Shown one piece after another: positions 454 to 56,133 of a stretch of 64,000 bases of DNA. The DNA is from Escherichia phage warpig. Positions within the stretch are counted from its first letter, which is position 1. Each line of letters starts with the position of its first letter. Under the pieces are notes generated by a model. The model was given only the letters and a program-made list of their open reading frames with translations. It was not told where the DNA came from and did no database searches. The stretch lies in sequence record MN850637.1; one strand, written 5' to 3'. Made by a program: the position numbers and the translations under genes.

Positions 454-656
454 CAATGACAACACTCTTGAAAGCATTGATATCCATACTACATATAGCA
501 GTCTTCTTCTTTGGAGTTAGTGTTATGGTATGGGGTTTTTCAGACCCACAATGGAGTTTCTCATATCATGGTCAGATGGATTTATGGTCATGCTTCAAAC
601 CATTTTTAGGGTTAGTCATAGCATTCAGTGCATTACCAACTAAGGTGAAATTATGA
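441..656 (+). CDS. small membrane protein (hypothetical)
   Basis: ORF track; hydrophobic stretch LISILHIAVFFFGVSVMVWGF; alternative ATG at 456. Confidence 0.35.
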   Translation: MVELTMTTLLKALISILHIAVFFFGVSVMVWGFSDPQWSFSYHGQMDLWSCFKPFLGLVIAFSALPTKVKL

Positions 657-1048
657 TTAAGTTGAGCCAAAAACAGTTAGAGTGGATTAAAGATTATGCC
701 TCAGAGTGTGGCTCTTGTGAAAAGAATCACGTAAGATACTCAACATTCCACACGGTCTTCACATTGTATATCGGCGACAATGTTCTAAGTGATTCTGTAG
801 AAGATGGTGTAGCATTGCCTAATGAATTGCTTGACAAATTAGCTGTAGTCACTGGAACTTGGTCTGAAGAAGATGGTCACGAACTATCTGATGATGTTGT
901 CTTCTACAGTCTTGAAAACATTATGAATCCAGAGTACATTATGCTAATGACTTGCGCACAAGATTGTGTACCATTACAAAACTTCATTAAAGAGCACTGT
1001 GAAGAATTTATTACTAAACAGGTTCCTTGTCAGGTGGTGTTTGAATGA
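653..1048 (+). CDS. hypothetical protein
   Basis: ORF track; ATG with upstream AAGGTGA; tight spacing with neighbours. Confidence 0.45.
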   Translation: MIKLSQKQLEWIKDYASECGSCEKNHVRYSTFHTVFTLYIGDNVLSDSVEDGVALPNELLDKLAVVTGTWSEEDGHELSDDVVFYSLENIMNPEYIMLMTCAQDCVPLQNFIKEHCEEFITKQVPCQVVFE

Positions 1049-1344
1049 GTAAAACAATTCGAAGAAAAGGTTTAAAGAACGTTCATGGACTCTATGAGTG
1101 GAGAAATGAGGTACGTAACAGAGAAAATGCTTCAGATGTCTACTTCCATTCTGATATGATGTCCAGAAAAGGTGGCTCTTACGACTTCACAAGCCAGCCT
1201 TGTAGAGAGATTAAGAAGGCCACTAAACGTCTTACAAGAACACAAATAAGGCAGCTTTCTAAGACATCCTTCTTAGATGAAGACTTTGACATTGATAGCA
1301 AGTCTCCAAAGAAAGCTGCTCAGAACACTTATATGTATTGGTGA
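1045..1344 (+). CDS. hypothetical protein
   Basis: ORF track; overlapping start/stop with upstream gene (operon-like). Confidence 0.4.
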   Translation: MSKTIRRKGLKNVHGLYEWRNEVRNRENASDVYFHSDMMSRKGGSYDFTSQPCREIKKATKRLTRTQIRQLSKTSFLDEDFDIDSKSPKKAAQNTYMYW

Positions 1345-1353
1345 GGTAACTAG

Positions 1354-1839
1354 ATGAATTACATGGATATTCGACCATTTGATACAGCTAATGGTGAAGG
1401 GGTTCGTGTAAGCCTCTTCGTAGCTGGTTGTAAGCATCACTGCGAAGGCTGCTTTAACAGGGAGTCTTGGAAGTTTAATGCTGGTAAAGTGTTCACTTAT
1501 GCAAACCTATATGGAATCATCCAGTTAATGTGTGACGATGCTGTCAGTGGGTTGTCAATACTTGGTGGAGAACCTCTGGATGATAGAAATATTCAAGAGG
1601 TTACCAATATATGTAAACGTATTAAAACTGTTTACCCAGAGAAGTCTATCTGGCTCTGGACAGGTTTTCAGTTACACGAAAAAATTCACCTAGATGTAAT
1701 GAAATATGTTGACGTGGTGATTGATGGTAAGTATGATTCATCTAAACCAACAGTTAAACCGTATCGTGGTTCTGATAACCAAAACCTCTGGAGAAAAGAG
1801 TATGGGTGGCAAGGTGATTGTCAATGGCGAGCCGAGTAA
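1354..1839 (+). CDS. nrdG: anaerobic ribonucleotide reductase activating protein (radical SAM, NrdG-like)
   Basis: 161 aa; N-terminal MNYMDIRPFDTANGEGVRVSLFVAGCKHHCEGCFN carries the CxxxCxxC radical-SAM cluster motif typical of NrdG. Confidence 0.75.
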   Translation: MNYMDIRPFDTANGEGVRVSLFVAGCKHHCEGCFNRESWKFNAGKVFTYANLYGIIQLMCDDAVSGLSILGGEPLDDRNIQEVTNICKRIKTVYPEKSIWLWTGFQLHEKIHLDVMKYVDVVIDGKYDSSKPTVKPYRGSDNQNLWRKEYGWQGDCQWRAE

Positions 1840-1964
1840 GTCTCGTCGTAAAGTAGGTTATCGGTAAAGGCCACTTTACAATGTTCTACAGAACAAACTT
1901 AACCGTTTGGTGTCACTGAAGAAGAACTTAAAACCTTTTGTGAAAAGATTGAGAGAGACATGAA

Positions 1965-2222
1965 ATGGGACTCTGGAATAGTTTTAAATCAAAAGTAAAA
2001 GCAGCACTAGCTTCATTAGGTATGCTCACTGGTGTTGATGTGACTCATCTTATGCAGAACTTTAAGATGGATGAGAAGCTGGCTAATGAGATTATGAAAA
2101 GTATCTATGTAGGCCGTGGCAAAGGTGGTAAGAAACAAGCCCACCGTCCGTCTGGTGCAGCAGCTATTAAACGAGCAGCTAAGAAAGCTCGTAACCGTAA
2201 ACGTAATAAGAAGGCTAAATAA
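1965..2222 (+). CDS. hypothetical protein with highly basic C-terminus
   Basis: ORF track; Lys/Arg-rich tail KKARNRKRNKKAK. Confidence 0.4.
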   Translation: MGLWNSFKSKVKAALASLGMLTGVDVTHLMQNFKMDEKLANEIMKSIYVGRGKGGKKQAHRPSGAAAIKRAAKKARNRKRNKKAK

Positions 2223-2224
2223 TC

Positions 2225-2545
2225 ATGAGCAAAGTTTATAACACTCGCAAATTACAGATTTTCGTACTGTGCCAGTTTATGGCTAAAGAGTATAACTTCT
2301 ACTATTGTGGTACAGGTTTTATTAGCGATGATGATGGCTCATACCTCCCATTCAAAGAAGCTGTGAAGCTCTTTAATGAAGAGAAAAGCTCTAAGAAAGA
2401 TATTGAAAAGGTTAAGCTAACCTACAGCAAGAAAGATAAGAAGATTATCTGCCTAGATAACTTTGTAAAAGTTACTGGGGAAGCAAAAGAGTTTATGGAT
2501 GAGAGTGAGATTTCATTCACAAGCATCTTGAAAGTAGCTCAGTAA
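2225..2545 (+). CDS. hypothetical protein
   Basis: ORF track; followed by hairpin plus T-run at about 2558-2586. Confidence 0.4.
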   Translation: MSKVYNTRKLQIFVLCQFMAKEYNFYYCGTGFISDDDGSYLPFKEAVKLFNEEKSSKKDIEKVKLTYSKKDKKIICLDNFVKVTGEAKEFMDESEISFTSILKVAQ

Positions 2546-2557
2546 ACAGATACTATA

Positions 2558-2586
2558 GGGGAACTGTAAAGGTTCCCTTTTTATTT
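2558..2586 (+). terminator. Rho-independent terminator
   Basis: GGGAAC..GTTCCC stem followed by TTTTTATTTT. Confidence 0.5.
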
Positions 2587-2596
2587 TGGAGGTAAA

Positions 2597-3112
2597 ATGT
2601 ATCTGTCAAACCTGAAACGTTCGGTTGCAATGTCAGTTCTAAGACTCAGCTTTGATGAGCGTCAAGAGTTTATAGACTCCCACAAATATGACCCTTCAAA
2701 TTCTAATCACATGGTTCTTTGGAATCGTGACAACTTCCGTGAAAGAGCACTTGTCCGTTATTACCCACACTACACAATAGATAACCTGTATGAATGGTGT
2801 GTTGTGAAGAACACCATTGCAACACTGAACAATCTTTGCAGGTATACAGGTAAGCAAACATTTACACTAGGCCACCACAAACCTGTTACAAAAGGTGGTG
2901 AACATCACTGTGCGAACTGGTTTATCCAAACTAAAGCTGATAACCAGAAGCAAGGAGATAGCCTCCTAAGTATCCCTAAGATGACCTATGAAGAGCAAGA
3001 GAAATATATCAAAAATAATATGCCAGATGTGCTTGACAACAACTATACAGATTTGGCAATATCTCTCCTGTTGAAGTTCGAGACAGTTTATAGGGCAACT
3101 TATAATGGCTAA
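2597..3112 (+). CDS. HNH-type endonuclease-like protein (putative homing endonuclease)
   Basis: 171 aa; segment LGHHKPVTKGGEHHCANWFIQTKADNQKQGD resembles the HNH His-His..N..N core. Confidence 0.4.
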   Translation: MYLSNLKRSVAMSVLRLSFDERQEFIDSHKYDPSNSNHMVLWNRDNFRERALVRYYPHYTIDNLYEWCVVKNTIATLNNLCRYTGKQTFTLGHHKPVTKGGEHHCANWFIQTKADNQKQGDSLLSIPKMTYEEQEKYIKNNMPDVLDNNYTDLAISLLLKFETVYRATYNG

Positions 3113-3383
3113 AGAAAAGTGGGGGATTTTACCATTAGTCAGTGAAGGAGGTAATGGTTGTGAGATGTACATGATACGTGGTCATGTTCCAGAACCAATT
3201 GCACTTGAGATGGTAAACAACTTTACAGATGGTTCTTACAAAGACTTAGGAGAGCCAACTATAAAGCAGCAATGGGTAAAGCCTGTCCCAGACAGCACAG
3301 GTAACTGTAGTGTACTTTACCACGTTGTAGACCCTGTAAAATGCAAATCTGCAATGGCAGTAACAAACGTAACTTTTGATTGA
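3105..3383 (+). CDS. hypothetical protein
   Basis: ORF track; translationally coupled to flanking genes. Confidence 0.4.
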   Translation: MAKEKWGILPLVSEGGNGCEMYMIRGHVPEPIALEMVNNFTDGSYKDLGEPTIKQQWVKPVPDSTGNCSVLYHVVDPVKCKSAMAVTNVTFD

Positions 3384-4276
3384 GAGAGAAAACTATGAAA
3401 ACATCTATCCGTGTCACAATTCATTCACCGACTAAAGGAACTCATGAAGAAGAGTTTAACATCATCCAATTCCCTTCTGGTGAGATTGGTGGCCACTTTT
3501 CACAAGAGCTTGTTGATTTTACTGCTTATGCAGCATCATCTATTAACAATGTGGTTATGATTGTAAAGGGTTATGACAAAGACACACTGTTTGCTGTGGC
3601 ACTGGCTAAAGAAGCAATTGACGATTTAGTTCCTCATGATTATGCCCTGAAGACTGTCATTTTTTACTACTTGCCAAATGCACGATACGACCGTCACATG
3701 TTTAAAGGCGACGCAGCAGCTTTAAAGGTTTTTGCTAAACAGGTAAATGCAATGGGATTTGGTGCAGTCTGTGCAGTTGACCCTCACAGTTATGTACCAG
3801 ATAACCTGTTTAACTGCTTCCAAAGTATTCCTCAAAAGGAGATTGCAGTCCACTATGCAAATGACCCTCTAATTGATTACTTAGTAGCCCCAGATGCAGG
3901 TGCTTCTAAGAAGATTGCAGAGACTGCTAAAGAGGCGGATAAACCATATATCACAATGTCTAAGGTGCGAAATCTTAAGACTGGAGAAATCACTGGTATG
4001 CGAATCCTTGACGATGTTGATTTGACCGATAAAACCGTCATGATTCTTGATGATATCTGTGATGGTGGTCGAACCTTCGTAGAGGCAGCTAAACACCTAC
4101 GTGAAGCAGGTGCAAAACGTGTTGAGCTTTATGTAACACATGGTATCTTCTCTAAAGGTGTTGAAAACCTTCTTGACAACGGTATCGACCATATTTACAC
4201 TACAAACTCTTTAGGCGAAGCTAAAGACCGTGGCTTAACACATTATGGTCAAGTTACTGTAGCAAACCTTGATTGA
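3380..4276 (+). CDS. ribose-phosphate pyrophosphokinase (PRPP synthetase)-family protein; candidate ADP-ribose pyrophosphokinase of an NAD+ reconstitution pathway
   Basis: 298 aa; phosphoribosyltransferase-type PRPP-binding loop VMILDDICDGGRTF; directly upstream of a NAMPT-like gene. Confidence 0.75.
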   Translation: MREKTMKTSIRVTIHSPTKGTHEEEFNIIQFPSGEIGGHFSQELVDFTAYAASSINNVVMIVKGYDKDTLFAVALAKEAIDDLVPHDYALKTVIFYYLPNARYDRHMFKGDAAALKVFAKQVNAMGFGAVCAVDPHSYVPDNLFNCFQSIPQKEIAVHYANDPLIDYLVAPDAGASKKIAETAKEADKPYITMSKVRNLKTGEITGMRILDDVDLTDKTVMILDDICDGGRTFVEAAKHLREAGAKRVELYVTHGIFSKGVENLLDNGIDHIYTTNSLGEAKDRGLTHYGQVTVANLD

Positions 4277-4285
4277 AACTTTATA

Positions 4286-4308
4286 GGGGCTTGAAAGCCC
4301 CATTTTGA
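4286..4308 (+). terminator. hairpin GGGGCT/AGCCCC with short T-run
   Basis: inverted repeat between the two NAD-pathway genes; weak T tract, so may be attenuating only. Confidence 0.35.
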
Positions 4309-4321
4309 GAGAGATTAAAAG

Positions 4322-6103
4322 ATGACTAAATCACTTTATGCAGTACCAGCAGGTTTAAACGCAGATGCTTACAAGTCTGGTCATGTTTACCAGTATCCTA
4401 GTGCAACAGAGTACTTGATGTTCAACCTGACACCACGTAGTGACAAATGGTTTAACAGCCCCTTAGCAATTGATGGTGTAGTGGCTTTTGGTATTCAACG
4501 TTTCGTTAAAGATTACTTGATAGACCACTGGAACGCCACTTTCTTTGAACGTGATAAAAAAGAAGCAATTGACGAAATCTTAGAAGTCATGAATGGTGTT
4601 TTGGGTAAAGATGCTATCGGTCGAGAGCATTGGGAAGCACTTCACGACTTAGGCTATCTACCAGTTGAAGTATACGCTGTAGAAGAAGGTACAGTTGTTC
4701 CGATGCGTGTCCCAATGATTGTCTTTCAGAACACTGTTTCAGGTTTCCATTGGGTAGCAGGGTATCTGGAAGATGCTTTCTCTGCTGAGATTTGGAAGGC
4801 TTGTACCATTGCAACTATTGCATTGCACTACAAACGTATCTGTAAGAAGTGGGCTGACCTTACTTGTGACAATGACTTACATTTACCTTACCAGTGCCAT
4901 GACTTTGCTATGCGTGGTATGTCAGGCTTTACTGATGACGCATTTAACGCTGTAGGCCACTTAACCAGCTTTAAAGGGACTGATAGCTTCCCTGCTGTAT
5001 ATACAGCTAAACGCATCTACGGACAGTCTTACCCAGTCTCTGATATTGGTGGTTCTGTACCAGCCACTGAACACTCTGTAATGTGTGCAAACATTGCTTG
5101 GGAAGGTGGTAATGAATTGATTGAAGAGGAAAGACGCTTTAAAGGTGAATTACAAACCTTCCGTCGCTTCTTAACAGAAACTTACCCAACTGGTATTGCA
5201 AGTATTGTTTCAGATACTTATAACTTCTGGAGAACTGTGTCAGAAATCTTACCAGCACTTCGTAAAGAGATTATGGAACGTGACGGTAAACTGGTAATTC
5301 GTCCTGACTCTGGAGACCCTGTACATATTGTCACAGGTTATAAAGCAATCCACTTAGAGTGTGCTAAAAAGGCTTATTACGAGCACCTAAGCAAGCTGGA
5401 AGCCAGTGACACAATGCTGAATGCTGTTCTGAACATGAAGCTTGAAAACATCAGCTATGGTATTGCTGGATGGCTACTGTCAGAAGGCTACGAAATGGTT
5501 GTTGACCGAGAAGACTTTGAAGTTGCTGATACAGTGATGTTGAAAAATACTTATATGGTTGGCTCTGCAAACGTTGTAACACGTCCTGTAGCAGAGATTG
5601 ATGGAGCTATTAAGACCCTGTACAACATCTTCGGAGGGACTATTAACTCTAAAGGGTTTAAGGTACTGGATGAGCACATCGGCCTTATCTATGGTGACTC
5701 TATCACACTGGAACGTGCAAACGAAATCCTGAAGCGTCTGTATGAAATGGGTTTTGCAAGCTCTAACGTAGTGTTTGGCGTAGGCTCTTACACTTACCAG
5801 TACATGACTCGTGACACCTTTGCATTTGCTGTTAAAGCAACTCTTGCAAGCATTGGTGGTAAAGAGATTATGCTTGCAAAAGACCCTAAAACAGATAGTG
5901 GTGTTAAGAAGTCTGCTTTTGGTGGTGTAGCACCTATGTGGGATGGTGATAAGTTGAAAGCTGTAGATGGCTATGGATTCCAGAGCTTTGCAGATGCACT
6001 TGAACATCCAGCTTGTGCTTTACGTTTAGTCTTTAGTGACTCTGAGCAGTACGGTTACACATCTCTTGGTGATATTCGAAATAATATTGACAAGCAGCTT
6101 TAA
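4322..6103 (+). CDS. nadV: nicotinamide phosphoribosyltransferase (NAMPT/NadV)-family protein
   Basis: 593 aa; NAPRTase-family signature LVIRPDSGDPV; N-terminal YKSGHVYQYP. Confidence 0.8.
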   Translation: MTKSLYAVPAGLNADAYKSGHVYQYPSATEYLMFNLTPRSDKWFNSPLAIDGVVAFGIQRFVKDYLIDHWNATFFERDKKEAIDEILEVMNGVLGKDAIGREHWEALHDLGYLPVEVYAVEEGTVVPMRVPMIVFQNTVSGFHWVAGYLEDAFSAEIWKACTIATIALHYKRICKKWADLTCDNDLHLPYQCHDFAMRGMSGFTDDAFNAVGHLTSFKGTDSFPAVYTAKRIYGQSYPVSDIGGSVPATEHSVMCANIAWEGGNELIEEERRFKGELQTFRRFLTETYPTGIASIVSDTYNFWRTVSEILPALRKEIMERDGKLVIRPDSGDPVHIVTGYKAIHLECAKKAYYEHLSKLEASDTMLNAVLNMKLENISYGIAGWLLSEGYEMVVDREDFEVADTVMLKNTYMVGSANVVTRPVAEIDGAIKTLYNIFGGTINSKGFKVLDEHIGLIYGDSITLERANEILKRLYEMGFASSNVVFGVGSYTYQYMTRDTFAFAVKATLASIGGKEIMLAKDPKTDSGVKKSAFGGVAPMWDGDKLKAVDGYGFQSFADALEHPACALRLVFSDSEQYGYTSLGDIRNNIDKQL

Positions 6104-6118
6104 AAGTATATGATAAGA

Positions 6119-6143
6119 GGCTCCTACGGGAGCCTTTTTAATT
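6119..6143 (+). terminator. Rho-independent terminator
   Basis: GGCTCC-TACG-GGAGCC followed by TTTTTAATTT. Confidence 0.6.
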
Positions 6144-6156
6144 TCTGGAGAAGACT

Positions 6157-6492
6157 ATGAAAATCAAAGAAATGAACATCAATATTGTCTTAGAAGAACG
6201 TTGGGAGAACATCAAGAAGCCTGAAGATGGTAAGAAGTTCCTTAACAAAATTTTAGTAGCAGCTAAAGAAGAACTGACTGGCAAGATTGCAGCAGCAATC
6301 ACAATAAAAGTCTGTGTAAAAGGTCTTCCAGACAACCACCAATTTGCGCTTGACGAGTTTAAAGAAAGCTTCTACAATCCAAACAAACAGATGCTTGAAA
6401 GTAACTTTGCAGTATCTACAAGTATCGTCCATGACAGAAGCTTTATCCTTTACAAAAATATGAGAGGTGAGTCATGCAAGCATATTGGATAG
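6157..6492 (+). CDS. hypothetical protein
   Basis: ORF track; ATG preceded by GGAGAAG. Confidence 0.45.
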   Translation: MKIKEMNINIVLEERWENIKKPEDGKKFLNKILVAAKEELTGKIAAAITIKVCVKGLPDNHQFALDEFKESFYNPNKQMLESNFAVSTSIVHDRSFILYKNMRGESCKHIG

Positions 6493-6650
6493 AAATTTTA
6501 CTGTCACTTGGTAGTGTAGCAGTTTTTGTTTACCTTCTTTGCAAGTACTATGCAGAGTACAAGAAGTGTGATTACTGCAACGGGGAAGGGTACACAAGAG
6601 CAGGTTGTTGCCCTATTTGTGGTGGTTCTGGTAAAATGTTTAATAAGTAA
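6474..6650 (+). CDS. small membrane-anchored zinc-ribbon peptide (58 aa, two CxxCxGxG motifs)
   Basis: Not in the >=60 aa ORF track; ATG at 6474 preceded by GAGGTGA; translation MQAYWIEILLSLGSVAVFVYLLCKYYAEYKKCDYCNGEGYTRAGCCPICGGSGKMFNK. Confidence 0.4.
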   Translation: MQAYWIEILLSLGSVAVFVYLLCKYYAEYKKCDYCNGEGYTRAGCCPICGGSGKMFNK

Positions 6651-13584: not shown

Positions 13585-14370
13585 ATGGGTATTGTAAAAA
13601 TCATCAATGGGGATATCTTCTCCGCATTTGATAAAGGTAAGTTTGATATTATTGGTCACGGTTGCAACTGTATGAACTTAATGGGTGCAGGTATCGCTGA
13701 CAAGATTTCTAAACTTTACCCAAAAGCATATGAGACCGATACAGAAGTTTATTTGTATGCAGGTGGCATAGGCCACAAACCCTGTGAAAATTTACTAGGT
13801 AATTTCTCTGTAGCACGTTTAAAACAAGGCCGTATAGCTAACCTTTACACTCAGCTTAAGACTGGTAAAGATGCCCGATACAGTGCTTTAGAGTCATCTT
13901 TGAAACAGCTTAACAGATACTGTGAAGTCAATCAGTTGAAGAAAGTCGGGTTACCTATGATTGGTGCAGGTATCGGTGGGCTAGACGCTCAAGCCGTCAC
14001 AGTTATCATTAATCAGGTGATGAAGAGTGTAGATGTGTATCTGTATGTCTATGAAGGAGAGATGTACCACAAGTTACGCTCAGGTTGGAAGAACTACTGT
14101 GAACCAGAATACTTTGCAGGTGTAGTAACGTTCACAGACAATACAGTTACCCTCTTCAGACGAAGAAAAGGTAAGATACATCAAAGTAACCCTCCGGTTG
14201 AAAAGATGTCTCTAAGTAACGCTCTAGTTACCCACCTGTCGAAGAGCAATCACAGGATTGCAGTAACATTTGGTAGTGATGCAGACACTTATATCTATGC
14301 AAGAACTGATGAGGGTATCGAGACAGTTTTCTCTTCGCCAGAAGTTACCTTCTTAGACGCAAAGAACTAA
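13585..14370 (+). CDS. macro-domain protein (ADP-ribose-binding/hydrolase fold) with extra C-terminal domain
   Basis: 261 aa; macro motifs GDIFSAFDKGKFDIIGHGCNCMNLMGAGIA and LPMIGAGIGGL. Confidence 0.65.
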   Translation: MGIVKIINGDIFSAFDKGKFDIIGHGCNCMNLMGAGIADKISKLYPKAYETDTEVYLYAGGIGHKPCENLLGNFSVARLKQGRIANLYTQLKTGKDARYSALESSLKQLNRYCEVNQLKKVGLPMIGAGIGGLDAQAVTVIINQVMKSVDVYLYVYEGEMYHKLRSGWKNYCEPEYFAGVVTFTDNTVTLFRRRKGKIHQSNPPVEKMSLSNALVTHLSKSNHRIAVTFGSDADTYIYARTDEGIETVFSSPEVTFLDAKN

Positions 14371-18467: not shown

Positions 18468-19010
18468 ATGAAATGCTTTCACGGTACTACTCAAGAAAAC
18501 TTTATCAACCTGATTAATAATGGTGATAAGCCATCAGGTGCATGGAATTGTTCGGATATGGATGGCAATTTTTACGTATACCCAGAAAATAAAATCTATG
18601 GTGACGATGAGGAAGAGATAGTATCCGAAGGTATTCAACAGGCGTTAGGAAATGCCACTATCACGGCAGCTTTCCAGATGAAAACCCAAAACATTGTTAT
18701 CTTGGAACTTGATATTCCAGAGGACGAATTAAATGATGATTATTCTTGTGATAATATGTCTGGCGTAGCAAGTTTTACAGAATACTTCGATTTAAATTGG
18801 ATTAAAAAGGTTTACGTAACCGAGTTTAATGCGATGTTTTCGCCTTTTTGTCTTCCTTCATTGGATAACCCAAATTTAAACTATCTTGATGAGTCTCTGG
18901 AGCTTCTTGCTAAAAGCGTTCAACAGTCGGACAGTATTCAGGTTTTTTGTGACATCATGGATACACTGGCAGGAAACATCGCAGAAGAGGATTTAAAGAG
19001 CTTTTTTTAA
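18468..19010 (+). CDS. small acidic early-region protein (hypothetical)
   Basis: 180 aa; followed by hairpin AGCCCCTTGTAGGGGCT. Confidence 0.5.
   Translation: MKCFHGTTQENFINLINNGDKPSGAWNCSDMDGNFYVYPENKIYGDDEEEIVSEGIQQALGNATITAAFQMKTQNIVILELDIPEDELNDDYSCDNMSGVASFTEYFDLNWIKKVYVTEFNAMFSPFCLPSLDNPNLNYLDESLELLAKSVQQSDSIQVFCDIMDTLAGNIAEEDLKSFF

Positions 19011-48117: not shown

Positions 48118-56133
<8,016 letters not shown>

Follow-up and report, generated by a model that had tools for sequence, protein, structure and literature searches.

The closest described relative of the locus studied here is the NARP1 pair of phage Bas63 (JohannRWettstein), the phage in which the system was discovered, where bas63_0079 encodes Adps and bas63_0080 encodes Namat (Osterman et al., 'Phages reconstitute NAD+ to counter bacterial immunity'). 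Bas63 lacking genes 79-80 was sensitive to SIR2-HerA and formed about 20-fold fewer plaques; infection with wild-type Bas63 restored NAD+, ADPR-PP (m/z 720.010) was detected only where wild-type phage infected cells with the defence system, and host PncC and NadR were dispensable for the protection (bioRxiv 10.1101/2024.02.11.579819). Bas63 Adps could not be purified, and its chemistry is known from in vivo metabolites and from homologues (bioRxiv 10.1101/2024.02.11.579819). An independent report described single-gene deletions with complementation in Bas63 (bioRxiv 10.1101/2024.10.10.617714). The immune systems countered by NARP1 are SIR2-HerA, DSR, type I Thoeris and SEFIR, the Bas63 case resting on deletion and complementation. 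In vitro chemistry has been demonstrated for the SpbetaL1, ICP1, DyoEdafos and Paenibacillus foliorum homologues. Conversion of ADPR and ATP to ADPR-PP was shown for SpbetaL1 and ICP1 Adps (PMC13586617; bioRxiv 10.1101/2024.02.11.579819), and the Namat proteins of SpbetaL1, P. foliorum and DyoEdafos had a measured preference for ADPR-PP over PRPP and synthesized NAD+ directly.

Other systems share part of this design with the pair that we analysed in a 64,000-nucleotide stretch of Escherichia phage warpig (MN850637.1; the window). The NARP1 systems of Bacillus phage SpbetaL1, studied biochemically and with Namat crystal structures (9w5w and 9w5x), and of Vibrio phage ICP1 (NrsA/NrsB, with Adps structures) have the same two-enzyme pathway and gene order, and the catalytic residues, PP loop (DDICD...), catalytic Lys and clamp helix are conserved; identity to the window proteins is about 38% for Namat (fold-search alignments) and 33% for Adps against ICP1 (protein alignment). 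The Adps and Namat core recurs in NARP1-AP of Vibrio phage Gary, which adds the Macro-domain phosphatase Adpp, and in the RyDEP-extended NARP1 of Mycobacterium phage DyoEdafos. NARP2 (Vibrio phage KVP40 NadV with the NMNAT/Nudix protein NatV) and NARP3 (a PnuC-like transporter with a NadR-like enzyme, Bas30) serve the same purpose, and NARP2 also uses a Nampt-family enzyme. However, NARP2 takes PRPP as its starting material and NARP3 takes nicotinamide riboside that has been imported, whereas NARP1 starts from ADPR; NARP2 and NARP3 also require an NMNAT or NadR-like adenylyltransferase, and the scans of the window turned up no such enzyme. Cellular Prs (class I-III) and Nampt/NadV have folds and core catalytic residues in common with the window proteins, but their substrates are ribose-5-phosphate and PRPP rather than the ADPR and ADPR-PP of NARP1 enzymes.

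DNA comparison identified the window as a Felixounavirus (FelixO1-like) phage genome. Bas63 was 97% collinear with it at 91-97% identity, and 259 phage records matched its DNA, nearly all of them FelixO1-like and from Escherichia, Salmonella, Shigella and Citrobacter; 236 of the 259 carried 80% or more of the operon region used as query. The locus lies between nrdG-side small genes and rIIA in both the window and Bas63, and consists of the following elements.

2557..2579, + strand: upstream intrinsic terminator, the 5' boundary of the unit; 9 pairs followed by a T-run, -14.3 kcal/mol
2597-3112, + strand: upstream gene 1, 171 aa, homologue of Bas63 gp77 (phrog_3500; Bas63 collinearity)
3105-3383, + strand: upstream gene 2, 92 aa, homologue of Bas63 gp78 (phrog_4726; Bas63 collinearity)
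3395..4276, + strand: adps, putative ADP-ribose pyrophosphate synthetase (Prs-like), 293 aa (family matches; Bas63 orthology)
4286..4307, + strand: adps-namat intergenic hairpin, GGGGCU-UGAA-AGCCCC then AUUUUG; -12.6 kcal/mol, z -2.9
4322..6103, + strand: namat, putative nicotinamide ADP-ribose transferase (NAMPT-like), 593 aa (family matches; Bas63 orthology; fold)
6115..6138, + strand: closing intrinsic terminator; 10 pairs followed by a T-run, -16.6 kcal/mol, z -3.3

A preliminary description had placed a two-gene cassette at 3380-6103, with a Prs-like gene directly upstream of a NAMPT-like gene, in an operon closed by a terminator. The ORF list and the family profiles bore out the gene pair, which lies side by side as NARP1 pairs do, here with both genes on the + strand and 45 nt between them; gene order, spacing and protein lengths (293 and 593 aa) were equal in the window and Bas63, and the protein alignments were gap-free. 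The 5' end of the cassette had to be revised. The mechanical ORF of adps (3380..4276, + strand, 298 aa) begins with a TTG that overlaps the stop codon of the gene before it. ATG 3395 has GAGAGAGAA in front and agrees with the start annotated for the Bas63 and AYO145A genes, and start codon and Shine-Dalgarno sequence are common to the window and Bas63; ATG 3395 is thus the likelier start.

The terminator-bounded unit (2557-2579 to 6115-6138) contains four genes rather than two. The products of 2597-3112 and 3105-3383 are neighbours in the unit, not NARP1 enzymes. Retron Ec67 is reportedly countered by Bas63 gp77, the homologue of the first of them. The closing terminator, with the stem-loop AAGAGGCUCC-UACG-GGAGCCUUUU, is strong and real and closes the operon, as had been proposed; the AYO145A annotation has a terminator at the place that matches the upstream one. 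A simple terminator scan of the window made no call at the intergenic hairpin, which is also kept in Bas63 and is annotated as a rho-independent terminator in AYO145A; it could serve as a weak terminator or attenuator, or act on RNA stability. Downstream of Namat, the window lacks the 345-nt bas63_0081, which directly follows the gene in Bas63.

We then compared Adps with the characterized enzymes. The features concerned were:

3956..4006, + strand: predicted catalytic beta-hairpin with Lys190, equivalent to ICP1 Lys185 (alignment)
4049..4078, + strand: PP loop DDICDGGRTF, aa 219-228, predicted ATP-pyrophosphate-donor site (role from ICP1 structures, PMC13586617)

Profile searches placed both proteins in the expected families far beyond chance. 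For Adps, TIGR01251 scored 119 bits (cut-off 113), this broad subfamily model being the only Prs model whose cut-off was passed, and phrog_619 matched with E 6e-97. The Prs equivalog and subfamily NCBIfam models gave 42-103 bits against cut-offs of 296-536, and none was reached. The PRPP-binding-loop motif reported earlier, VMILDDICDGGRTF, was located at nt 4037-4078 (aa 215-228, numbered from ATG 3395). The loop within it has the Adps-type pattern DD-I/L-C-D-G...F, whereas archaeal Prs has DDIISTGGT at this place; ICP1 differs from the window in reading CDGAAS instead of CDGGRT. In an alignment of 14 Adps homologues, ICP1 included, D219, D220, C222, D223 and F228 of the loop were invariant, as were R97, H131, D167 and K190. 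The counterparts of ICP1 R87, H121, D161, D212, D213, D216 and Lys185 were therefore all present, and these nine residues of the window protein (R97, H131, D167, K190, D219, D220, C222, D223 and F228) match ADPR/ATP-binding or catalytically essential residues of ICP1 Adps, in which K185A abolished ADPR-PP formation (PMC13586617). The acceptor-site residues and the catalytic Lys occur in true Prs too, and alone do not separate Adps from Prs. Of the catalytic and ADPR-binding residues mapped from the ICP1 structure, the adenine-stacking F18 (from the neighbouring protomer) and F92 are the only ones that the window protein does not keep; at these columns it has H10 and M102, and Bas63 has T10 and M102. 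Because the functional Bas63 enzyme also lacks it, the Phe pair appears to be specific to ICP1 rather than family-defining, with the N-terminal alignment uncertain.

Adps shared 229 of 293 residues with Bas63 gp79 (78%, no gaps), and the differences were unevenly distributed. The C-terminal region (aa 181-293) was about 96% identical, with an omega of 0.05 (Nei-Gojobori), while the N-terminal ~180 aa were about 65% identical, with a dS of about 1.4 and an omega of 0.17 (aa 1-180). The N-terminal domain is a deeply diverged allele, which puts the window protein one step away from the tested Bas63 allele. By analogy with its orthologues, the conversion of ADPR and ATP to ADPR-PP by window Adps is predicted.

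Namat was analysed in the same way, and the relevant features were:

4430..4465, + strand: predicted selectivity-clamp loop (SCL) region, TPRSDKWFNSPL (stretch identical to Bas63)
5300..5323, + strand: RPDSGDPV catalytic-core motif, aa 327-334 (R327/D329 correspond to SpbetaL1 R306/D308)
5342..5602, + strand: 87-aa insertion subdomain, aa 341-427, replacing a ~15-residue loop of short Namat proteins
5783..5815, + strand: selectivity-clamp helix motif GSYTYQYMTRD, aa 488-498 (consensus GSX-phi-X-phi-X-phi-TRD, PMC12774641)

The family matches were NF006629 (469 bits), phrog_448 (E 1e-202) and Pfam PF04095 and PF18127. Namat was 98% identical to Bas63 gp80 (583/593, no gaps), with an omega of 0.04 (Nei-Gojobori). 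Its best PDB sequence match was SpbetaL1 Namat (9w5w/9w5x, E 2e-127), and the AF2 model (pLDDT 92) had Namat crystal structures as its top fold matches (TM 0.94-0.95 on target). F195, R198, D221, H251, R327 and D329, the last two from the RPDSGDPV motif found where the preliminary description had noted it, were invariant in a 27-sequence alignment and make up a Nampt-like core; F195, R198, D221 and H251 align with SpbetaL1 F189, R192, D215 and the catalytic His. All NAD+-contacting residues of SpbetaL1 Namat were kept or conservatively swapped.

Two elements bear on substrate choice. In the clamp helix, motif positions 3 and 7 are aromatic and stack on adenine (PMC12774641); in the window protein they are Y490 and Y494. 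The same site reads GAQTYQRNTRD in H. ducreyi NadV and GGALLQKVDRD in Xanthomonas Nampt, the clamp motif being absent from both, and H. ducreyi NadV, which among true Nampt enzymes in the PDB comes closest, is without both clamp aromatics. Because it separated Namat from this related enzyme, the pattern GS-[YF]-T-Y-[QN]-aromatic-x-TRD is usable as a sequence rule. The second element is the SCL, in which the third position after TPR is Arg, Lys or Tyr; where it is Lys or Tyr, stacking falls to the residue at position four, Bas63 being the Lys-type example. The window loop (TPR-S-D-K42-W43) is of the same Lys type, in contrast to Arg40 of SpbetaL1, and the clamp motifs of the window and Bas63 are identical. 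By analogy with the orthologues, direct NAD+ synthesis by window Namat, with ADPR-PP favoured over PRPP, is predicted.

The preliminary description had called the NAMPT homologue unusually long at 593 aa. The length is correct, and it is no oddity, as Bas63 Namat also has 593 aa. It is accounted for by the 87-aa insertion (341-427) and by a further insertion of 15-20 aa at aa 257-276; SpbetaL1/ICP1-type proteins lack both. Among the homologues retrieved, the long form was also found in Felixounavirus, Suspvirus, Pectobacterium-phage and Yersinia-phage proteins. The insertion at 341-427 has a confident fold and persists in long-form homologues whose identity is as low as about 45%. Structure comparison returned no match as a structural relative of it; the Namat paper makes no use of the word 'insertion', and the 87-aa insertion was not covered in the literature searched.

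An NMN adenylyltransferase, said earlier to be missing from the window, was looked for in three ways. A six-frame motif scan for P-x-(H/T)-x-GH and ISSTxxR-type NMNAT motifs found none; Pfam scans of 29 further window ORFs, larger and non-structural ones, found no NMNAT; and the annotation of Bas63 contains none. The earlier statement holds as far as these checks reach. The search concerned the window, and the Bas63 counterpart of the 23 kb outside it carries replication and nrd genes.

With presence, orthology, operon boundaries, purifying selection and conservation at the catalytic and specificity positions established for the pair, we consider the locus, at a probability of about 0.93, to be the NARP1 operon that this FelixO1-like (Felixounavirus) phage carries, its activities and counter-defence role being taken from its orthologues. 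The type 1 reading offered earlier, from ADPR through ADPR-PP to NAD+, is supported by Bas63 orthology and the Namat clamp motif. In addition, a single profile, PHROG 12872, matched both proteins in adjoining stretches, suggesting that Adps-Namat fusions occur. The same account had held that the chemistry is undecidable from sequence alone; it is decidable, because the two genes are orthologous to the experimentally tested gp79 and gp80 (78% and 98%). On this model, a host SIR2, TIR or SEFIR effector would split NAD+ into ADP-ribose and nicotinamide; Adps (3395-4276) would convert ADPR and ATP to ADPR-PP; and in the Namat (4322-6103) reaction nicotinamide would displace the pyrophosphate of ADPR-PP, giving NAD+ directly with no need for an NMN adenylyltransferase. 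The phage would then replicate in cells with NAD+-depleting immunity, a phenotype predicted from the 98% (Namat) and 78% (Adps) identity to Bas63.

Dual use has a very small chance of being correct: the pair would act as NARP1 under NAD+ cleavage, and in undefended cells Namat would add NMN made from host PRPP as a metabolic boost. Namat retains PRPP-dependent NMN synthesis, clamp mutants included (PMC12774641), and the operon region (at least 80% of it) occurs in 236 of 259 phage records, although any one NAD+-depleting system is presumably absent from most hosts. However, NARP1-specific metabolites appeared in Bas63 infection only with the defence system present (bioRxiv 10.1101/2024.02.11.579819), the Bas63 pyrophosphokinase was reported to lie in a genome segment that is non-essential on standard hosts (bioRxiv 10.1101/2024.10.10.617714), and a phage NMNAT to finish the pathway was not found in the scanned window ORFs and frames. 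Slightly less probable still is classical salvage, in which Prs makes PRPP, NadV/Nampt makes NMN and host NadR/NadD completes NAD+: it fits the database names (TIGR01251 just past its cut-off, NF006629 'nicotinate phosphoribosyltransferase' and every GenBank annotation) and the appreciable PRPP-to-NMN activity of Namat homologues in vitro, by which some classical salvage is possible (PMC12774641), but it is opposed by the scores of 42-103 bits in the specific Prs equivalog models (cut-offs 296-536), by the clamp motif that H. ducreyi NadV and Xanthomonas Nampt lack, and by SpbetaL1 Adps, which formed product only from ADPR and ATP and none in the test reaction typical of PRPP synthetases (bioRxiv 10.1101/2024.02.11.579819).

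The locus is a further copy of the founding NARP1 example, from the same phage genus, and no new kind of system. Its practical value lies in annotation. About 250 FelixO1-like genomes, therapy and biocontrol candidates among them, carry the old labels 'ribose-phosphate pyrophosphokinase' and 'nicotinamide/nicotinate phosphoribosyltransferase'; these should be replaced by Adps and Namat, from which it follows as a prediction that the phages withstand NAD+ depletion of the SIR2, TIR, DSR and SEFIR types but are sensitive to aRES-type cleavage. Modest structural or evolutionary leads come from the domain inserted in Namat and from the dimorphism of Adps alleles.

We also searched for accessory genes. 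In the operon-flanking ORFs (653-6650), the two upstream genes of the unit included, Pfam detected neither a Macro nor a RyR domain; the unit and the two genes to each side of it have no such gene, as a NARP1-AP or RyDEP-extended arrangement would. One Macro-domain gene was found elsewhere:

13585-14370: Macro-domain gene, 7.5 kb downstream of the operon (Pfam; the only one found)

Its product is related to AdfM and Adpp, and is slightly closer to the T-even Tk.4 family than to an operon-embedded Macro protein (T4 Tk.4 is AdfM; the Tk.4 comparison was made through RB69 Tk.4). The literature searched for Felixounavirus NARP1 did not cover the Namat insertion, this downstream gene or the Adps alleles. 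It is unlikely that these details matter. If they do, the insertion could be a functional add-on; it might dock Adps to channel labile ADPR-PP, be a regulatory module, or protect against a host factor as a decoy or a shield. The Macro protein could be an ADPR-1''-phosphate phosphatase working in trans; if so, Felixounaviruses would be cryptic NARP1-AP phages, resistant to aRES and overlooked by a survey of two neighbouring genes. The Adps N-terminal domain occurs as deeply diverged alleles swapped by recombination, and pressure from an Adps-targeting host factor could lie behind this.

The preliminary description placed a gene for a ribose-phosphate pyrophosphokinase (Prs)-like protein directly upstream of a NAMPT-like gene. 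Both ORFs, both motifs and the family profile matches were found, confirming the pair.

3380..4276, + strand, mechanical ORF of the Prs-like gene, 298 aa counted from TTG
4037-4078, + strand, motif VMILDDICDGGRTF in the Prs-like gene
4322..6103, + strand, NAMPT-like gene, 593 aa in the ORF listing
5300-5323, + strand, motif RPDSGDPV in the NAMPT-like gene

The Prs-like protein matched the Pfam phosphoribosyltransferase and Prs-associated domains and PHROG 619, 'ribose-phosphate pyrophosphokinase' (E 6e-97). With TIGR01251, a broad model of the Prs subfamily, it reached 119 bits against a cut-off of 113; it scored far below the cut-offs of the specific Prs equivalog models. The NAMPT-like protein matched Pfam NAPRTase and NAMPT_N, NCBIfam NF006629 (469 bits) and PHROG 448 (E 1e-202). 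The first gene had been described as running from 3380; the gene stands, but its start most likely lies at ATG 3395 rather than TTG 3380, giving a product of 293 aa. This ATG has GAGAGAGAA immediately 5' and is the annotated start in Bas63 (Escherichia phage JohannRWettstein) and in phage AYO145A, and a start at TTG 3380 would overlap the preceding gene's stop codon.

A megablast search with 3300-6200 matched 259 phage records, nearly all FelixO1-like myoviruses of Escherichia, Salmonella, Shigella and Citrobacter, with identity up to 97%; 236 of the 259 covered at least 80% of the query. BLASTN against the complete Bas63 genome (MZ501086) showed collinearity over 97% of the window, at 91-97% identity; in Bas63 coordinates the match starts at 49.7 kb, passes the genome end and reaches 27.4 kb. 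The NAMPT-like protein was identical to Bas63 gp80 at 583 of 593 positions and the Prs-like protein to gp79 at 229 of 293, both without gaps, and the lengths and spacing of the two genes equalled those in Bas63. The pair is orthologous to Bas63 genes 79-80 rather than just similar to them.

NAD+ reconstitution pathway 1 (NARP1), in which Adps converts ADP-ribose (ADPR) to its pyrophosphate and Namat joins this to nicotinamide, was discovered in Bas63. Bas63 without genes 79-80 was sensitive to SIR2-HerA, its plating efficiency falling about 20-fold; NAD+ was restored by the wild-type phage only, and ADPR-pyrophosphate (m/z 720.01) was seen only when wild-type phage infected defended cells (bioRxiv 10.1101/2024.02.11.579819). 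An independent knockout screen confirmed each gene singly, with complementation; there, loss of a single gene lowered plating 10^4- to 10^6-fold (10.1101/2024.10.10.617714). The window locus is thus assigned as plain NARP1, an already known system with Bas63 as its founding phage, and the enzyme activities of the window alleles are predicted by orthology. NARP1 had been the preferred reading from the outset, and the orthology to genes 79-80 supports it; the accompanying view that the chemistry could not be decided from sequence alone no longer holds, as this orthology decides for NARP1.

NARP2 and NARP3, unlike NARP1, need an adenylyltransferase, and a hidden NMN adenylyltransferase (NMNAT) would have pointed to one of them. 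As stated previously, none was found in the window: a six-frame scan for the NMNAT-type motifs P-x-(H/T)-x-GH and ISSTxxR was empty, as were Pfam scans of 29 additional window ORFs, and the Bas63 annotation lists no NMNAT. The longest window segments without a Bas63 match were at most 446 bp, less than an NMNAT, at roughly 170 aa or more, would require. We therefore rejected this alternative; the evidence is good but not exhaustive, as the window leaves out about 23 kb of the genome.

Classical nicotinamide salvage, from PRPP through NMN to NAD+, was rejected on the Bas63 genetics and metabolite data together with a specificity motif in Namat. A structural study of SpbetaL1 Namat defined an adenine 'selectivity clamp', consisting of a helix with the motif GS-X-phi-X-phi-X-phi-TRD, with aromatics at motif positions 3 and 7, and a variable loop after TPR, the third or fourth residue of which stacks on adenine; Bas63 was given as an example of the lysine-type loop (PMC12774641). 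Window Namat carries the helix motif at aa 488-498 and the loop TPR-S-D-K-W. Both clamp aromatics are missing from the two Nampt-type proteins compared.

Clamp motif comparison
Window Namat: GSYTYQYMTRD
H. ducreyi NadV (9ke8; genuine Nampt, next-best PDB relative): GAQTYQRNTRD
Xanthomonas Nampt: GGALLQKVDRD

In the alignment, all NAD+-contacting residues of SpbetaL1 Namat were conserved or conservatively replaced in window Namat. An AlphaFold2 model built from a 27-sequence alignment (mean pLDDT 92) had the Namat crystal structures as its best fold matches (TM 0.94-0.95 on target), with NadV and mammalian NAMPT ranking below them.

The length of Namat, previously called unusual, is shared with Bas63 Namat (also 593 aa), and the long form was common to the retrieved homologues from Felixounavirus, Suspvirus, Pectobacterium phages and Yersinia phages. 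Compared with 495-aa proteins, the extra length consists of two insertions, aa 257-276 and aa 341-427. The latter takes the place of a roughly 15-residue loop directly after the RPDSGD strand, and the same loop is filled with unrelated sequence in other lineages, indicating an insertion hot spot. A Foldseek search with the full model returned Namat and Nampt only. For the identity of the insertion, the top matches were to unrelated proteins, namely an RNA polymerase subunit of phiKZ, OTU domains and N-terminal domains of integrases, and were treated as noise. We regard the insertion subdomain as a modest lead.

For Adps, the best PDB sequence match was an archaeal Prs (E 3e-17) in a set without the ICP1 Adps structures, which have been published (PMC13586617). 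We took the ICP1 NrsA/Adps gene from GenBank and mapped its residues onto window Adps by alignment. The acceptor-site residues R97, H131, D167, D219, D220 and D223, the catalytic hairpin lysine K190, and the PP-loop residues C222 and F228 were invariant across 14 Adps homologues. The two phenylalanines of ICP1 that stack on the ADPR adenine were not conserved, being H10/M102 in the window and T10/M102 in Bas63; their replacement in both phages indicates that they are not a family-wide feature.

DNA identity to Bas63 was 66-79% between the start codon of the Adps gene and roughly nt 3940, and exceeded 91% beyond that point.

Divergence from Bas63
Adps aa 1-180: dS 1.37, omega 0.17
Adps aa 181-293: dS 0.39, omega 0.05
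Namat: dS 0.18, omega 0.04

The values for the N-terminal domain ruled out positive selection and indicated that it is an anciently diverged allele that has been exchanged by recombination and evolves under purifying selection. In the protein database, the allele type of the window makes up the larger cluster (791 members at 95% identity), and the other clusters lie at 73-80% identity.

The operon was correctly described as closed by a terminator, a strong intrinsic one at 6115-6138 (-16.6 kcal/mol, z -3.3). It is not a two-gene unit: it begins after another terminator at 2557-2579, so that four genes lie between the terminators. The two genes 5' of adps, at 2597-3112 (+) and 3105-3383 (+), are homologues of Bas63 gp77 and gp78. 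Between adps and namat, at 4286-4307, lies a hairpin (GGGGCU-UGAA-AGCCCC, then AUUUUG; -12.6 kcal/mol, z -2.9) that is kept in Bas63 and annotated in AYO145A as a rho-independent terminator. It may act as an attenuator of Namat expression or as a stabiliser of the adps message. The hairpin and the Adps allele dimorphism are both modest leads.

According to a preprint, Bas63 gp77 counters retron Ec67, and genes 84 and 85 (rIIA and rIIB) counter qatABCD; on this basis, counter-defence genes appear to be clustered in window 2.6-10.2 kb. The preprint ascribes a GIY-YIG domain to gp77, whereas PHROGs gave a weak HNH-endonuclease match (E 2e-6). Comparison of window 6104-6156 with Bas63 55455-55857 showed that the 345-nt bas63_0081, which in Bas63 separates Namat from the following gene, is missing from the window; all that is left there is the terminator plus a promoter-like site at 6087-6114 (11/12 consensus matches). 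Matches to 3300-6200 were split in several relatives (FelixO1 NC_005282, VSe102, PMBT20; finno, SP3_SHan-2021, RPN213). Some contained an extra segment of about 0.5 kb with an HNH homing endonuclease and others about 1.7 kb of small hypothetical genes, indicating that the NARP1 neighbourhood is an insertion site for mobile elements and gene cassettes.

PHROG 12872 (nicotinamide phosphoribosyl transferase, 547 positions) matched both window proteins, Adps at profile positions 35-224 and Namat at 235-534, which implies that fused Adps-Namat proteins exist. The retrieved proteins included an 843-aa Namat homologue (P0064). Multi-megabase contigs from Klebsiella, Cronobacter, Kosakonia, Phytobacter and Superficieibacter encode short-form homologues at 45-49% identity, with Namat at about 496 aa and Adps at about 286 aa. 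They probably represent copies of NARP1 in prophages or bacteria, which agrees with a report of bacterial NARP1 in Paenibacillus.

The extended forms NARP1-AP and RyDEP differ in needing a gene for a Macro or RyR domain within or beside the operon, and were rejected because the flanking ORFs contained no such domain. A distal gene encodes an orthologue of bas63_0095, 'putative phosphatase'.

13585-14370, + strand, Macro-domain protein, 261 aa
10861-11556, polynucleotide kinase homologue
18468-19010, + strand, ORF of 180 aa, collinear with bas63_0107

The N-terminal part of this protein is a Macro domain (PF01661, E 1.5e-7) whose nearest NCBIfam match is the DarG antitoxin (E 8e-13); the C-terminal 100 aa or so matched nothing. 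The protein showed 33% identity to RB69 Tk.4 and 28% to a Kronos protein encoded within an operon of this kind. The T4 version of Tk.4 has recently been given the name AdfM, as a factor that acts against DarTG2. As RB69 Tk.4 and the Kronos protein are themselves 37% identical, sequence does not separate an AdfM-like role, an Adpp-like role or both for this gene, which we consider a modest lead. The 180-aa ORF had no Pfam match; taken with the kinase homologue and the Macro protein, it may point to a set of genes for RNA repair or ADPR handling.

Beside the endolysin, an Ig-like domain protein (27163-28047, - strand) has 294 aa in the window, compared with 460 aa in Bas63 (76859-78241). BLASTN at 27182-27670 revealed internally repeated segments of about 68% identity, suggesting variation in Ig repeat number.
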